Sequence record: PV648359
DNA length: 64,000 bases
DNA from: Escherichia phage LF82-1
Reading direction: 5' to 3' (one strand)
The notes below the pieces were generated by a model. It had not been told where the DNA came from, made no database searches, and worked only from the letters and a program-made list of their open reading frames with translations. The translations under genes and the position numbers were made by a program. This document shows, piece by piece, positions 26,331 through 52,298 of the stretch (position 1 is its first letter; the number at the start of each line of letters is the position of its first letter).

Positions 26331-26362
26331 ATTATACTCCAACCATCCTTGGTTGTAAACCG
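26331..26362 (-). promoter_or_regulatory. Early-promoter stem-loop cassette (GTTTAC, palindromic spacer CAACCA-AGGA-TGGTTG, TATAAT)
   Basis: 27-nt identical copy at 27351..27377. Confidence 0.55.
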
Positions 26363-26364
26363 TT

Positions 26365-27324
26365 TTATGATTTTAATGCATTCATTGCATTAAAAAGTTT
26401 AGAGTACTGCAACTGGAGATTCGTTACAACACTTTGAGCATCACGAAGCTTAGCTTGTGCTTTGTCAAGTTCAACGGACAGTTGGTCTGCAGTAGCCTTG
26501 ATTTGGTTGTAATGATAATCTTCGGCCGGAAGAAGGTCATTAGAAACATTTAGTTTTACTGCCGACAGTTTGCACACATTTGGCAAACCTTTAAACATAC
26601 CGGGTTGTGTCGGAGAATATGCGCTTAGAACCTCTGCATTACCGACTGGTGTTGCTGTAATATTGCCTTCAAACAATGCATTTTCCTTTTTAAGATTTTG
26701 ATAGTATTCAGAGTCTTTGTGCCACCATGGCGCAGGAACCTTTTTACCAATAGATACACGAGCCTGGATAGCGATATGGCCCTTATTCTTGATAGGGTCG
26801 ATAATATTAAGCTCACGAGAATAAATTGCTTTAATTTGGTGAATATTATCACCTAACACTTCCAACGCTTGGTGGAATACACGAGCAACGTTATCGTTCT
26901 TAGGTTTATATGTAAGAGTGAACTCGTTCTCACTGATAACCATGATTTCTAACTTATCGTAAGTATATTTCAAATGTTTCATGTTAATTGCTTGAGGACG
27001 AATACGAGAAGCAATGGCCATCAGATTGTTAAGGTTATTTCGGAACTGTTTAGCGAAATATTGTCCTTCACCGCCGATACAAAAATTACGAAGTTTCTGT
27101 TTGGCTAATAAACGGCTGAACTCACCATTTTTAATGAACTCTTTAACGGGTGTGTTAGTAATGCATTCAAATTGAGTAAACATACGAGAATTAATCCCAT
27201 AATATGAACAGATTTCCTCAATCTCTTCAGGAGTCTTTACAGGCATACGGATAGGATTAGGTCCTGGAGTATATGCGTTCGAGGTAAATTCTTTGATAAG
27301 TTCTCTACGTGTAATAAAAGCCAT
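26365..27324 (-). CDS. Hypothetical protein (319 aa) with C-terminal coiled coil
   Basis: ORF track. Confidence 0.55.
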   Translation of the reverse strand: MAFITRRELIKEFTSNAYTPGPNPIRMPVKTPEEIEEICSYYGINSRMFTQFECITNTPVKEFIKNGEFSRLLAKQKLRNFCIGGEGQYFAKQFRNNLNNLMAIASRIRPQAINMKHLKYTYDKLEIMVISENEFTLTYKPKNDNVARVFHQALEVLGDNIHQIKAIYSRELNIIDPIKNKGHIAIQARVSIGKKVPAPWWHKDSEYYQNLKKENALFEGNITATPVGNAEVLSAYSPTQPGMFKGLPNVCKLSAVKLNVSNDLLPAEDYHYNQIKATADQLSVELDKAQAKLRDAQSVVTNLQLQYSKLFNAMNALKS

Positions 27325-27350
27325 TTTATATTCCTCATGTTGAAAAATTT

Positions 27351-27382
27351 ATTATACTCCAACCATCCTTGGTTGTACATCA
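27351..27382 (-). promoter_or_regulatory. Early-promoter stem-loop cassette (copy of 26331)
   Basis: attatactccaaccatccttggttgta repeated. Confidence 0.55.
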
Positions 27383-28375
27383 TTCCTTAAGAAGTTTTAC
27401 TACTTGAATAAGATTAGCTCGTTCTGTTTTATTTTTACCGTTTAAGCCTGCTAATCGTGAGATTTCATCGTCAGTCTGTTGAATAGTTACATTAAGTTCG
27501 TTAATCAAAGCTTCAAAGTATTTGATTTGCTCAGCATGTTTTGATTCAAATTTCTGAACCGGAATAACGTCTTGGTTCAGTCCATCAATAAGGTCTTTAA
27601 GAGCATCTTCTTGGTTGATATCATATTCAACTTCCTTTATTTCTTCAACGAGCTCGTCTTTATATCTAACGTCTTTTAGTCCTGGTGCTGGTCCTGAAAT
27701 CTCTTCTTTAAGAGTACAAACATACCCAATACGGTATCCAATGCCGTCTCGCTTGATATCAACTTCGTCGATAAATCCACAATGTTTAAGTCCAGAGCCG
27801 ATTATGTCAAAATATCCTTGACGACGTCCTTCAAACGTTACACGAACTACTAAGACAGTTTTGCCACCGACCTTTTGAAGCTCACATTTATAAAAGTCCG
27901 TTGAACCTGAATAACGTGGATGAGTTTTAAAGTTCATCTGACGATCTAGGCCCATTTGTAAACGTGCTGTTACGGCCATAAAACGTGTTTGGTTCTCGTT
28001 AAGATGAGCAACAATCCATTTCAAAGGCATTTTACACTGTTCACGACCGAACAAATCAGTACGTCCTAGATTACGCAGGATGTTGTTAGAGTTAATCATC
28101 GACAGAACGTTAAGTTTATTCAACGCGCTGAAGATTCCGTCAGCCATTGATTTTCCATAACCTTTACACGCTTTAATAAGTGCTCGCGGCAGATTAGTAT
28201 AGATTTCAGACGGCATATGAAAATCAAATTTACTAGTCAGTAATTGATGAACTTGGATAGCAATTTGCTCATAATTAAGTGCTCTGCGATCGTTATGGTC
28301 TTTAAACCACACTTTAATCTGTGAAGCACATAAACCGTTAATTTCATGTTTTACCGCATCAGATGTAATGCTCAT
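27380..28375 (-). CDS. Hypothetical protein (331 aa) with C-terminal coiled coil
   Basis: ORF track. Confidence 0.55.
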   Translation of the reverse strand: MSITSDAVKHEINGLCASQIKVWFKDHNDRRALNYEQIAIQVHQLLTSKFDFHMPSEIYTNLPRALIKACKGYGKSMADGIFSALNKLNVLSMINSNNILRNLGRTDLFGREQCKMPLKWIVAHLNENQTRFMAVTARLQMGLDRQMNFKTHPRYSGSTDFYKCELQKVGGKTVLVVRVTFEGRRQGYFDIIGSGLKHCGFIDEVDIKRDGIGYRIGYVCTLKEEISGPAPGLKDVRYKDELVEEIKEVEYDINQEDALKDLIDGLNQDVIPVQKFESKHAEQIKYFEALINELNVTIQQTDDEISRLAGLNGKNKTERANLIQVVKLLKE

Positions 28376-28437
28376 AACTATTTCCTCAGATTGAATTGGA
28401 ACTCAAAACCATTATAACCCGTCCTTGGGTAAAGCGT

Positions 28438-28965
28438 TTATGCGTGAACCGTCTTTAAACGTTCTTCAAATTTCCGAAGAGTACTAATACGTTCTGCTTT
28501 CTGTTTTGTATAGTTTGCAATACGTTCTGAAGTGAGAGCGTATCGTTCGTTTACTGTTTCTTTCATGAAGTCAGGGATTTCACGAGAAGCTTTAATTTCA
28601 TCAAACTTGTCGAGTACTGCCTGGTCTTCAGCGATTAAATTTTCGTACATCTCGATATCTTTCTTGATAAACTCGATATCTTCCTGGGTTACTTTGGATA
28701 AACGAGACGCTTTATCCTTTTTGTACTGCTCGTTAGTTTCACGAGACCAGAATAATGTACGTTTTTTGTTAGTGTTTTTGTAGACTTCCACAATTCCAAC
28801 TGAATCGATGATAACAATCCAATTCCAGCGAGATTTGAAAATCTGACCTCCGTCCACGGTAATCTCGTTATCATAAGCAACGTCATTAAAGAACTTGCTC
28901 TGTGCTTCAGATTTAAATTTACCGTCGTTATAATTTACCAGGTTGAAAATATCTTTAGCGTTCAT
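28438..28965 (-). CDS. Hypothetical protein (175 aa)
   Basis: ORF track. Confidence 0.55.
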   Translation of the reverse strand: MNAKDIFNLVNYNDGKFKSEAQSKFFNDVAYDNEITVDGGQIFKSRWNWIVIIDSVGIVEVYKNTNKKRTLFWSRETNEQYKKDKASRLSKVTQEDIEFIKKDIEMYENLIAEDQAVLDKFDEIKASREIPDFMKETVNERYALTSERIANYTKQKAERISTLRKFEERLKTVHA

Positions 28966-28986
28966 GTTTTACCTCCAGTAGTTGAT

Positions 28987-50946: not shown

Positions 50947-51323
50947 GAATGTTCCACCATTTCAAAGGTGTGAGCATCAACAATATGATACCAGTCAAAA
51001 TTTTCTTCTGCGTTTTTATAAATTTCGCGAAGAGCCTCAACAGTTTTTCCTGTAGCAACAAGGTCGTCAATACCACCAAGAGGATAACAGTCATAACCAG
51101 CAAACAGAAGGAAATTAATAGTTTCTGTAGGTTCTGGATGCAAAACACCATTATCATCTACCACTTCAAAGAAAGTGTAAGAAGGAGTACAAGTTTTAAT
51201 CCAAGCCCATGCTTGAGCTGCTGAATCAAATGGTCTGCGTATCAAACGACAATCAGGGTCTTTAGAAGGATTTGCTTCAAAATCCGCATATACGTGATAT
51301 TTCATTTTACTCACCTTTTGCAA
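50943..51323 (-). CDS. Hypothetical protein (126 aa)
   Basis: ORF track; ATGA coupling. Confidence 0.5.
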   Translation of the reverse strand: MQKVSKMKYHVYADFEANPSKDPDCRLIRRPFDSAAQAWAWIKTCTPSYTFFEVVDDNGVLHPEPTETINFLLFAGYDCYPLGGIDDLVATGKTVEALREIYKNAEENFDWYHIVDAHTFEMVEHS

Positions 51324-51492
51324 TTTTATCCATAACGATAGCGATTAAGCCGATTAGAAATGCTACTACCAATGAGATAGAATTTTCTGTTGTTGTCAGT
51401 AGTCCACAAATGAATCCTACAAACATCGAAAAACTAAAAGCCATTGAAGCAATTACTACAGCAACATTACGAATCAGTTCAGCGCGTTTCAT
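51307..51492 (-). CDS. Small membrane protein (61 aa)
   Basis: Two hydrophobic helices. Confidence 0.5.
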   Translation of the reverse strand: MKRAELIRNVAVVIASMAFSFSMFVGFICGLLTTTENSISLVVAFLIGLIAIVMDKIAKGE

Positions 51493-51561
51493 TTTATTCT
51501 CCTCAGTAGTTGATAGGGTAATAGTATCACTACCCTATCTAAAAGTAAACGGTTTTATAAA

Positions 51562-51870
51562 CTATTTTATTCCGCGTGATGCAATCGTATTCTGCCGTTT
51601 AACACCAGTTTGTTTAAAGTCATGACTGTCGATTTGATCGGTGCGAGCAACTCCGAATGATGATTTAATCTTAGCTTTAGATCCTTTAGTTATAGAAATA
51701 AACATCTCGGAAGACCCTTTCTTAAAGTCTGATGCAGATACTTCAACACCGTTCTTAGCAAGTGACCTCAGAATTGCATCCGCGTACTCATCATCAAGAC
51801 TCGCTTGAGTATTAATAACAAATGTCTTTGGTGCAGCCGCTTCATTGATAAATTCTTTATAGGTTTTCAT
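51562..51870 (-). CDS. Internal head protein (IPI-like) with capsid-targeting sequence
   Basis: N-terminal MKTYKEFINEA. Confidence 0.65.
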   Translation of the reverse strand: MKTYKEFINEAAAPKTFVINTQASLDDEYADAILRSLAKNGVEVSASDFKKGSSEMFISITKGSKAKIKSSFGVARTDQIDSHDFKQTGVKRQNTIASRGIK

Positions 51871-51892
51871 TTTATTTTCCTAATTAATTTTG

Positions 51893-51930
51893 ATAGGACT
51901 ACTATAACATAGTCCTATTAGCATGTAAAC
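51893..51930 (-). promoter_or_regulatory. Early-promoter stem-loop cassette (GTTTAC-18 nt-TATAGT with extended TGn; arms ATAGGACTA / TAGTCCTAT)
   Basis: Minus sense GTTTACATGCTAATAGGACTATGTTATAGTAGTCCTAT. Confidence 0.55.
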
Positions 51931-51933
51931 TAC

Positions 51934-52221
51934 TTACAGAAGGGTTTTTGCAATAATTTTAAGCTGAGCTACAGAAATATGCTTAGCTTTAAACAGTGCA
52001 GTCTCTTCAGCCGGAGAGATAACAATAGTAGCGCCATCTTTCTTAGCAGACCATCCATCCCCTAAGTAAACAGTACCTTTTACTTCTTCGCCATCAACCA
52101 GACTAATCATTGGTTTACCCTCACGTCCTTTATTTGCTTTAATAACTTCGGAAGTAAGGGTCGCTTCGGTCAGAGTAGAAACGTTAGCATCAGGTGATAT
52201 AAATTCTTTATAGGTTTTCAT
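51934..52221 (-). CDS. Internal head protein (IPI-like) with capsid-targeting sequence
   Basis: N-terminal MKTYKEFISPDA. Confidence 0.65.
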   Translation of the reverse strand: MKTYKEFISPDANVSTLTEATLTSEVIKANKGREGKPMISLVDGEEVKGTVYLGDGWSAKKDGATIVISPAEETALFKAKHISVAQLKIIAKTLL

Positions 52222-52298
52222 TTTATTTCCTTGAGGTTGTTTATTTTATAGGATGATAGTAACACACCATCATCCTTATGTAAACTGTTTTGTGAAAA

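Follow-up and report, generated by a model that had tools for sequence, protein, structure and literature searches.

Introduction

Early promoters of T4-type phages can be part of composite elements termed promoter-early stem-loops (PeSLs), in which, according to the description of these elements in Arbiol 2010 (PMC2839356), an A/T-rich region is combined with an early promoter, a stem-loop that overlies the promoter boxes or lies between them, a Shine-Dalgarno (SD) sequence and an ATG, with five positional subclasses being distinguished. The same description, citing Repoila 1994, assigns to T-even phages analogous, not homologous, elements with weaker AT-rich stems on T4 early promoters (PMC2839356). 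Here, a family of such cassettes is analyzed that lies on the minus strand between positions 26331 and 52285 of a 64,000-nucleotide stretch of DNA from Escherichia phage LF82-1 (sequence record PV648359), which is referred to as the window. These cassettes constitute a real and statistically solid PeSL-like family of early promoters in the genus Mosigvirus, and we consider it probable, with considerable room for doubt, that their stem-loops are RNA structures formed only in read-through transcripts and that, in a subset, they hide the SD sequence of the downstream gene.

A repeat of approximately 70 bp, in which an inverted repeat overlaps a T4 early promoter, was reportedly described by Repoila et al. 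(1994, EMBO J 13:4181) as flanking the internal-protein (IP) genes of T-even phages. Likewise, the cassettes 52285, 51930, 51550 and 40068 (cassettes are named by their higher coordinate) precede IP-type genes that share conserved leader codons, an inverted repeat overlaps most of these promoters, and relatives are distinguished by swaps which the cassettes bound. Unlike the T-even repeat, however, the design is spread here over the whole early region, including regB, denV, an nrdC.8-like gene and many other open reading frames (ORFs).

The cassettes display the same order of parts as the PeSLs of RB49/phi1, PST/T4 and nt-1/KVP40 (PMC2839356, PMC4122927). As with PeSLs, they are concentrated in hyperplastic regions ahead of small ORFs of unknown function and are tied to insertions or deletions (indels) and swaps, and a single ORF with a cassette on each side in one phage has a lone chimeric cassette as its counterpart in a second phage. 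Mini-circles arising by recombination between neighbouring elements also belong to the published picture of PeSLs. On the other hand, RB49 PeSLs comprise TTGACA promoters and G4/C4 stems, whereas the cassettes of the window have a GTTTAC -35 box and variable AT-rich stems without sequence homology to the former. Moreover, the stems of PST/T4 PeSLs are drawn just upstream of the promoter (Comeau 2014, PMC4122927), while most of those described here overlap the spacer and the -10 box. Pairing of the spacer with the SD sequence, which was found here, is not mentioned in the PeSL descriptions of Arbiol 2010 or Comeau 2014. The interpretation as PeSLs, put forward in an earlier note made from the sequence alone, is thus supported by matching anatomy and indel association, with the share of copies having a stem-loop cut to about half.

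A second group of related systems comprises the translational switches of the T4 genes e, soc, 49, I-TevI and segB, which are described as having a promoter inside a hairpin (PMC3014915, PMC2988022). Long transcripts of these genes are silent, while transcripts from the proximal promoter are translated, and the SD sequence resides in a helix whose 5' strand precedes that promoter, as is predicted here. The published switches that sequester the ribosome-binding site all concern late genes with late promoters (gp55, TATAAATA), given as their common feature in the respective part of the 2010 review. On the contrary, the genes concerned here (regB, denV and early ORFs) belong to the early ones, and their embedded promoter is of the early sigma-70 type; hence, the predicted switch would confine translation to the first minutes, whereas the late switches delay it. 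In the review by Uzan and Miller, the part on regB treats tight regulation and SD self-cleavage and contains no mention of a read-through hairpin, and a literature search for SD occlusion at early promoters found no description, which older T4 papers may nevertheless hold. The elements are therefore known, while their assignment to RNA, the split of their arms by the start site and the occlusion of early-gene SD sequences are absent from the PeSL passages of Arbiol 2010, from Comeau 2014 and from the pertinent sections of the 2010 reviews, an earlier mention being possible. SD occlusion of early genes is the less-documented part of PeSL-like cassettes, and the early-gene translational switch constitutes a testable extension of known elements.

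Early promoters in the window

The window sequence matches Escherichia phage LF82-2 (PV648360.1) at 100% identity, record coordinates being obtained by adding 96000 to those of the window. Its close relatives belong to Mosigvirus, which is the RB69-like genus among T4-type phages. Minus-strand transcription spans positions 1 to ~55700, the counterpart of the T4 early region that runs from gene 46/47 via nrdD, 49, nrdC, rI, tk, vs and regB to the IP genes, denV, e, nudE and the tRNAs, followed by 57, 1, 3 and 2. A search of the whole window against Rfam 15 at the gathering score yielded just two tRNAs, and no cassette matched an RNA family.

In a motif search, GTTTAC-N16-19-TATAAT was encountered five times on the minus strand compared with 0.09 expected, and GTTTAC-N16-19-TANNNT 22 times, 20 of them on the minus strand, compared with 3.9 expected, which bears out the promoters with GTTTAC, a spacer of 17-18 nucleotides (nt) and a TATAAT-like -10 box that the earlier note had proposed. 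These promoters stand upstream of ORFs, and most small early genes have one. Between 26331 and 52285, the minus strand holds ~21 T4-type early promoters in all, namely 15 exact copies, three with one mismatch in the -35 box (30498, 47614, 47899) and three with a decayed ATGTAC -35 box (27380, 48112, ~29337); the non-exact ones were retrieved by a one-mismatch search and by inspection of intergenic regions. With respect to the last of these, the stretch 29328-29353 is a 26-nt repeat of 48104-48129 (92% identical) with an ATGTAC -35 box and an A/T-rich upstream tract, and its sequence indicates one more, putatively degenerate cassette at ~29337 ahead of the gene 29024-29311. Additional cassettes lie in the window outside 26331-52285 (19170, 18468, 17751 and others).

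Most copies have TGn before the -10 box and a conserved CCTATCAA(A/C) block six bases past it, an A-rich tract is located upstream of every copy, and the SD sequence and start codon of the downstream gene stand at the 3' end of the cassettes. A repeat search on its own recovers the cassettes as dispersed repeat families with up to nine copies. Promoter-like matches on the plus strand were observed exactly opposite minus-strand cassettes at 28967-28997, 39647-39677 and 47565-47592; these look like mirror images of the palindromes and not like independent promoters, while antisense initiation is possible.

Geometry of the inverted repeats

The inverted repeats occur in three geometries. In the first, a short hairpin holds the extended -10 box in its loop and has its 3' foot at the predicted start site; in the second, a long helix pairs the spacer with the downstream SD sequence, as in regB and denV; the third is a small hairpin within the spacer. 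Strong short hairpins are found in eight cassettes (52285, 51930, 51550, 47614, 45039, 43744, 32897, 29021) and comprise 8-13 bp, with energies of -12 to -20 kcal/mol and z scores of -3.7 to -7.1 against dinucleotide shuffles, while the long spacer/SD helix is strong in three (40809, 37599, 33346) and weaker in two (39702, 48483). Three copies have a spacer-internal hairpin of 5-6 bp alone (26360, 27380, 48112), folding gave no significant repeat for 47899, 45927, 40068 and 30498, and two copies (30498, 48483) have a separate hairpin just upstream of the -35 box. These two upstream hairpins not counted, a stem-loop in or beside the promoter is present in ~16 of the 21 in-range copies, strongly so in 11, in a folding census without the copy near 29337. 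The more than 20 stem-loop cassettes announced previously hence hold as ~21 promoters, whereas a strong inverted repeat is confined to 11 and is not a feature of most. All six arm pairs quoted in the note were found in place, and its statement that the 3' arm is the SD sequence in several copies applies to regB, denV and 33346 and, more weakly, to 19170, 39702 and 48483.

The cassettes are listed below with the -35, spacer and -10 elements as far as given, the predicted transcription start site (TSS), and the predicted probability of the SD sequence being unpaired, P(unpaired), in the own-promoter transcript followed by that in read-through RNA.

52250-52285 (minus strand): early promoter GTTTAC-18-TACTAT, IP-like gene with ATG 52221; short hairpin with 5' arm 52265-52276 AGGATGATGGTG and 3' arm 52250-52261; z -5.7, -14.4 kcal/mol; predicted TSS ~52249.
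51893-51930 (minus): early promoter TATAGT, IP-like gene with ATG 51870; short hairpin ATAGGACTAT / GTAGTCCTAT (51909-51918 / 51893-51902); z -4.0; predicted TSS ~51894.
51512-51550 (minus): early promoter TACTAT, ATG 51492; short hairpin GATAGGGTAGTG / TATTACCCTATC (51528-51539 / 51512-51523); z -5.6; predicted TSS ~51514.
48426-48483 (minus): early promoter TACTAT, ATG 48426; weak pairing of spacer (TTCTTCC) and SD (GAGGAGAA) only; UUCG-loop hairpin just upstream; SD P(unpaired) 0.74, then 0.20.
48083-48112 (minus): cassette with degenerate -35 ATGTAC; spacer-internal hairpin CACCA/TGGTG (48099-48103 / 48090-48094).
47870-47899 (minus): early promoter ATTTAC-18-TATAGT, ATG 47841; inverted repeat not significant.
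47578-47614 (minus): early promoter ATTTAC-18-TATAAT; short hairpin TGAGAGCA / TGCTCTCA (47594-47601 / 47578-47585); z -3.7; predicted TSS ~47578; near-identical copy at 17715-17751.
45898-45927 (minus): early promoter GTTTAC-18-TATAAT without inverted repeat.
45001-45039 (minus): early promoter TATAGT, ATG 44981; short hairpin GATAGGGCTAT / GTAGTCCTATC (45018-45028 / 45001-45011) with G·T wobbles; z -6.7.
43707-43744 (minus): early promoter TATAGT, ATG 43686; short hairpin ATAGGACTAT / GTAGTCCTAT (43723-43732 / 43707-43716).
40756-40809 (minus): denV early promoter TACTAT, ATG 40752; helix of spacer arm TTCCTCCAAG (40794-40803) and SD-containing CTTGGAGGAA (40756-40765); z -4.2, -18.2 kcal/mol; predicted TSS ~40773 between the arms; SD P(unpaired) 0.41, then 0.00.
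40039-40068 (minus): early promoter GTTTAC-18-TATAAT, IP gene with ATG 40007; without inverted repeat.
39630-39702 (minus): early promoter TAGTAT, ATG 39629; weaker nested helix of spacer (TTTCTCC..GAATTGTGA) and leader plus SD (..TTAGAGGGG); -16.8 kcal/mol; SD P(unpaired) 0.78, then 0.15.
37549-37599 (minus): regB early promoter GTTTAC-17-TACTAT, ATG 37542; 14-bp helix TTCTCCTCTAGTTG (37580-37593) / CAACTAGAGGAGAA (37549-37562); z -4.7, -20.7 kcal/mol; predicted TSS ~37564 between the arms; SD P(unpaired) 0.61, then 0.00.
33295-33346 (minus): early promoter TATAGT, ATG 33290; helix TTCTCCTC (33333-33340) / GAGGAGAA (33295-33302) with inner AGGT/ACCT pairing; SD P(unpaired) 0.38, then 0.00; intrinsic terminator 33353-33385 ahead.
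32857-32897 (minus): early promoter TATAGT, ATG 32839; 13-bp short hairpin TTGGTAGGACTAT / GTAGTCCTACCAA (32876-32888 / 32857-32869); z -7.1, -19.7 kcal/mol.
30470-30498 (minus): early promoter GTGTAC-17-TATTAT, ATG 30442; without promoter-overlapping repeat; UUCG-loop hairpin (GGGCCTTCGGGCCC) ~30 nt upstream of the -35 box.
28987-29021 (minus): early promoter GTTTAC-17-TATTAT, nrdC.8-like gene with ATG 28965; short hairpin AGGTCTATGGT / ATTATAGACCT (29004-29014 / 28987-28997); z -3.9.
27351-27380 (minus): cassette with ATGTAC as -35 and TATAAT as -10 element; spacer-internal hairpin CAACCA/TGGTTG (27370-27375 / 27360-27365).
26331-26360 (minus): early promoter GTTTAC-18-TATAAT, ATG 26302; spacer-internal hairpin CAACCA/TGGTTG (26350-26355 / 26340-26345).
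19122-19170 (minus; outside 26331-52285): early promoter GTTTAC-17-TAAGAT, ATG 19113; helix of spacer TCCTC-ATAG and CTAT-GAGGA (SD) with one bulge; SD P(unpaired) 0.56, then 0.01.
17715-17751 (minus; outside 26331-52285): copy of the 47614 cassette with decayed -35 ACGCAC; hairpin TGAGAGCA / TGCTCTCG.

The arms of the spacer-internal hairpins of 48112 (CACCA/TGGTG) and 26360 (CAACCA/TGGTTG) show a compensatory difference.

Covariation and strand asymmetry of the arms

The own 5' and 3' halves of the promoters fold with a mean minimum free energy of -7.2 kcal/mol compared with -3.8 for halves swapped between promoters, and 0/5000 permutations reach the native arm fit, also when the folded segment is extended to +40, so that the complementarity in excess of controls expected in the earlier note was indeed observed. 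A scan of IMG/VR, in which the search pattern fixed GTTTAC, TAnnnT and CCTATCAA only and put no constraint on the spacer or on the three bases that follow the -10 box, yielded 104 distinct promoters. Among these, a complement to the promoter's own three discriminator bases plus CC occurs within the spacer in 34%, compared with 6.6% for partners of another class, the matches by discriminator class being 12/16 for AGC, 6/8 for TAC, 4/4 for AGT, 3/3 for AAC and 2/2 for AGG. In the commonest class, AGA, the discriminator is seldom matched and the first 11-14 spacer bases often pair with the SD sequence; double changes in this class are ATCTCCTGTAG/CTACAGGAGAT, ATCTCCAGTAG/CTACTGGAGGT, ATCTCCATTAG/CTAATGGAGAT and TTCTCCAGTAGTTG/CAACTACTGGAGAA.

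Ungapped comparison of 150 unselected cassettes with an 18-nt spacer revealed a dominant register centred on the first two -10 bases, which beats all slid registers and in which 53.7% of cells are paired compared with 48.8% after shuffling, with a covariation of 0.252 compared with 0.191 (0/500 shuffles for each). In 27 unselected cassettes with a 17-nt spacer, the spacer/SD helix is paired to 68.3% compared with 61.0% after shuffling and shows a covariation of 0.237 compared with 0.149 (0/500), while all slid registers stay at or below 50% and six pairs are changed on both sides. The compensatory change of the arms is thereby confirmed on unselected alignments. In addition, the T4 orthologues of regB and denV form the same spacer/SD helix with other arm sequences, and T4 IP promoters carry short hairpins.

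The strand under selection was addressed with 351 distinct cassettes from the window, T4, four Mosigvirus relatives and IMG/VR loci, in which helices were anchored by Watson-Crick (WC) pairs and internal non-WC positions were tabulated. Helices with at least nine WC pairs numbered 90 compared with 21.6 in shuffles, and their internal non-WC positions comprised 35 G·T and 6 A·C (p 5e-6), the shuffles giving 6.0 and 3.8, respectively. In the short class spanning the -10 box, 30 G·T, at no fewer than 16 distinct sites (at least 16), were opposed by 2 A·C. Long helices with a 3' arm without SD sequence were dropped, since their counts of 5 G·T, 6 A·C and 24 other positions looked like noise. Every G·T of the sense strand reads as A·C on its complement; no bias would therefore be expected from a cruciform, a property of the duplex or a site for a dimeric protein, and a cruciform or protein-palindrome reading was discarded on these grounds. 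The excess of G·T over A·C thus argues for selection of the stem-loop structure on the sense strand and hence, for a transcribed region, most simply as RNA. Accordingly, the selection 'on DNA or RNA structure' suggested before stands as selection and can be assigned to RNA or, more cautiously, to the sense strand.

Predicted read-through folding and proposed occlusion of the SD sequence

With the -10 box at -12 to -7, CCTATCAA puts a T-A step at -1/+1, and the C at -3 to -1 of the RB69 early-promoter logo (PMC1524935) agrees with a start at the A of this block; a literature search for published start-site maps of T4 or RB69 early promoters returned nothing usable. In every strong short hairpin, the end of the 3' arm falls within -1 to +5 relative to the predicted start; in the SD class, the two arms flank the predicted +1. 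Because the 5' arm is upstream of the predicted start, the transcript of the own promoter would lack it and could not fold, which leaves read-through RNA as the only form able to do so. For the six SD-class cassettes (37599, 40809, 33346, 19170, 39702, 48483), the predicted P(unpaired) of the SD sequence amounts to 0.4-0.8 for the own transcript and drops to 0.0-0.2 for read-through RNA, while for short-class cassettes it is unchanged between the two.

In the proposed mechanism, a cassette would supply a strong sigma-70 early promoter (A/T-rich UP region, GTTTAC, a 17-18 nt spacer, TGn-TAnnnT and CCTATCAA) followed by a short leader, SD sequence and ATG. In roughly half of the cassettes, the freely variable segments, i.e. 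spacer, discriminator and leader, would be shaped into a stem-loop selected as sense-strand RNA, and only RNA read through from upstream promoters would form this hairpin. In the SD subclass, with regB, denV and 33346 and, more weakly, 19170, 39702 and 48483 as presumed members, the 3' arm would be the SD sequence, rendering read-through RNA translationally silent and tying translation to the gene's own early promoter. In the short subclass, the hairpin would end at the start site and leave the SD sequence free, most likely serving as a cistron-boundary stem-loop that acts as a barrier to mRNA decay or as an attenuator. The shared cassette sequence of ~50-70 bp would, moreover, provide a foothold for homologous recombination. 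A role in sigma-dependent pausing or in the open complex was dismissed by inference from geometry, because the 5' arm would remain double-stranded within the open complex and, at the pause position, the RNA:DNA hybrid would still include the 3' arm.

Several points weigh against this interpretation. About half of the promoters have no repeat or a merely marginal one, the short-class hairpins do not touch the SD sequence, and start sites, read-through and folding in vivo are all predictions themselves. The nrdC.8-like gene has a short hairpin here (29021) and an SD-occluding helix in T4 and in an IMG/VR phage (locus L039), from which it follows that SD occlusion is dispensable and may not be the primary selected function, and that the two hairpin classes are interchangeable to some degree. 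Furthermore, the sequences in the covariation sets are kin, so that the shuffle counts of 0/500 overstate independence and are not probabilities, although a purely genealogical origin of the pairing is unlikely given the many distinct arm types. Finally, the only experiment on related elements, the RB49 stem-loop/lacZ assay as presented in Arbiol 2010, was read as termination (PMC2839356).

A more far-reaching proposition, plausible but tentative, is that the spacers of many T-even-type early promoters double as anti-SD strand, such that regB, denV and other genes would be translated from their own early-promoter RNA only and be silent on read-through, middle or late RNA; together with the short boundary hairpins, gene cassettes would thus be insulated from their genomic context, and part of the unexplained arrest of early protein synthesis ~3 min after infection could be accounted for. 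Such a switch would mirror the late-promoter switches of e, soc, 49 and I-TevI. If true, the SD-occluding subclass adds a simple promoter-coded layer to the shut-off of T4-like early genes, which reviews still call incompletely understood (including PMC2988021), and explains the context-independent expression of freely shuffled gene cassettes. For phage engineering, this would mean that genes inserted or moved beside cassettes change in translation as well as transcription. The main value, however, is one of clarification, since wobble asymmetry and start-site split point to read-through RNA elements rather than DNA recombination signals.

Cassettes and gene exchange

A cassette zone was defined as -80 to +45 of the -35 box, which covers 8% of the region, and indel or replacement edges were called against four Mosigvirus relatives. 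Between 14 and 17 of the 40 distinct edges fall into cassette zones (p 1e-6 to 1e-8), and 14/23 cassette-bearing junctions were hit compared with 17/67 others (odds ratio 4.6, p 0.003), whereby the previously postulated link to gene shuffling is substantiated. For instance, LF82-41 has a 67-codon ORF between two cassettes at the place where the window has one chimeric cassette (43744), the upstream part of which equals the first LF82-41 copy, while spacer and downstream part equal the second, with the join at the -35 box. At 45927, three relatives feature a 250-nt insertion exactly at the -35 box.

The near-identity of distant copies noticed earlier was recovered for 26331/27351 (88% over 43 nt) and for 17711/47575 (81% over 78 nt). 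The genes downstream of the former pair are unrelated, and tandem gene duplication as its source was rejected, as the flanking ~320-aa proteins lack BLASTP similarity; hence, the repeated unit is the cassette and not the gene. The surrounding stretch 25352-31535, corresponding to the T4 nrdC.3-nrdC.11 region, contains five successive genes of 316-331 codons that are strikingly alike in length, most of which own a cassette; pairwise BLASTP among these five detected no similarity at E<1e-3.

Five leaders of the IP type (MKTYQEFI...) repeat their first ~10 codons with 73-87% DNA identity:

39978-40007: IP leader repeat.
40303-40332: IP leader repeat.
41063-41092: IP leader repeat.
51841-51870: IP leader repeat.
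52192-52221: IP leader repeat.

Several breakpoints lie inside the IP coding leader and not in the promoter (39985, 52199), so the homology available for swaps reaches from the promoter into the coding leader. Shared cassette homology would explain why gene insertions, deletions and swaps between relatives begin and end at cassettes. This clustering agrees with the PeSL model, in which the cassettes may cause the exchanges or simply travel with inserted genes.

Boundary hairpins and alternative explanations

Among gene junctions of at least 35 nt (n=34, 15-53 kb), 71% have a hairpin of -12 kcal/mol or lower, compared with 33% of length-matched coding windows (p 3e-5). Junctions without an early promoter also carry such hairpins, and those without an overlapping repeat often have a separate one. 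One hairpin per boundary therefore looks like a general rule, with overlap of the promoter where space is short: as spacer, discriminator and leader are the sole unconstrained bases in a junction of 55-70 nt, a boundary hairpin must use them and hence overlaps the promoter.

The presence of hairpins at most gene junctions is also in line with the foremost alternative, an unlikely one in our estimation, namely that the stem-loops are terminators or attenuators of upstream transcription, as first proposed for PeSLs, so that a cassette ends one unit and starts the next. Comeau 2014 (PMC4122927) calls the elements composite promoter-terminator motifs, and in the RB49 experiment reported in Arbiol 2010 a PeSL stem-loop placed between promoter and lacZ cut expression as much as rrnB T1 (PMC2839356); selection on the sense strand fits such a function equally well. 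Against it, no promoter-overlapping hairpin was called in a terminator scan of 26000-45999, the conserved CAA(A/C)(A/T)AC and not a T-run follows the hairpins, whose tails read CAAAAC or CAACTAC instead of a U-run, the stems are AT-rich, and the SD-class loops of 17-30 nt are unlike those of a terminator, while true T-run terminators are present in the same region as separate elements. An intrinsic-terminator reading was consequently rejected (no T-run, no scan call), and of the 'promoter-terminator' designation adopted with the PeSL label the anatomy holds, whereas the terminator part is unconfirmed by sequence.

It is far less credible that the repeats have no function of their own and arose as by-products of common descent, of gene conversion among cassettes and of template switching that 'corrects' quasi-palindromes. 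These processes are frequent in T4, for which template-switch mutagenesis at quasi-palindromes is classical; moreover, the cassettes do form a dispersed repeat family with near-identical copies ahead of unrelated genes, and half of the promoters work without a repeat. However, a matching partner exists for each of at least eight different arm sequences, the regB and denV orthologues of T4 and this Mosigvirus keep the pairing while their sequences differ, the fit to the own partner exceeds all permutations, and neutral decay would give G·T and A·C in equal numbers.

Hardly probable, too, is a direct promotion of cassette exchange by the repeats as DNA, be it as cruciforms or single-strand hairpins for endonuclease VII or gp46/47 or as dimer-binding palindromes. 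The clustering of breakpoints at cassettes would suit this view, as would the mirror-image promoter-like matches that the palindromes make on the plus strand; in its discussion of PeSLs, Arbiol 2010 (PMC2839356) speculated on a specific DNA-binding protein and gave one crossover within the loop of a stem-loop. Yet duplex structure should tolerate G·T and A·C equally, in contrast to the 35:6 seen overall and the 30:2 of the short class, the free variation of arm sequences between copies rules out a palindromic site of defined sequence, hairpins with 8-13 bp stems and 6-30 nt loops would be expected to extrude poorly, and the crossover in the worked example (43744) is at the -35 box, outside the stem.

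The weakest alternative, which we regard as very improbable indeed, ascribes the complementarity to tuning of promoter strength, with spacer and discriminator co-selected for melting or for contacts of sigma or RNA polymerase and without any fold: both segments are occupied by the arms and do modulate sigma-70 promoter kinetics, but we know of no RNA polymerase contact that requires the spacer to be the reverse complement of the discriminator, the 3' arm of the SD class at +12 to +25 is outside the promoter, and G·T tolerance is senseless for duplex properties. What speaks for it is that the conserved information in T4 early promoters is known to extend outside the canonical boxes (PMC2988021).

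Neighbouring hairpins and terminators

The hairpins with UUCG tetraloops at 30500-30545 and 48490-48530 (minus strand; GGGCCTTCGGGCCC and GGGGACTTCGGTCCCC), upstream of 30498 and 48483, are both followed by the motif TTTAGGGGGTC, for which the CCC in the 3' arm could be an alternative pairing partner.

An intrinsic terminator of 33 nt, AGCCCCTTCCGAAAGGTTGGGGCTTTTT(T), is present on the minus strand in three copies with 85-97% identity (33353-33385, 33976-34008, 49203-49235), two of which are directly followed by a T4 late-promoter box (GTATAAATA). This combination of terminator and late promoter is a second kind of dispersed regulatory cassette. The gene 33390-33947, located between the first two terminator copies, is absent from LF82-41.

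Upstream of the gene 55 homologue, at 16790-16861 (minus strand), a middle-type promoter (MotA-box-like TGCTTTA, ~12 nt, TATAAT) is spanned at its -10 box by a hairpin ATAGGTCT / AGACCTAT with the 3' arm in the discriminator, which resembles the 'PmSL' elements described for phage nt-1. In addition, an 11-bp hairpin GGTAGGAAGA...TCTTCCTACC (-17.7 kcal/mol) occupies 17991-18045 (minus strand), a junction in which no early promoter is recognisable. Similar arms occur in promoter-bearing cassettes of other phages (GGTAGGAAGA/TCTTCCTATC), and this hairpin may represent a decayed cassette that has kept the stem-loop only.

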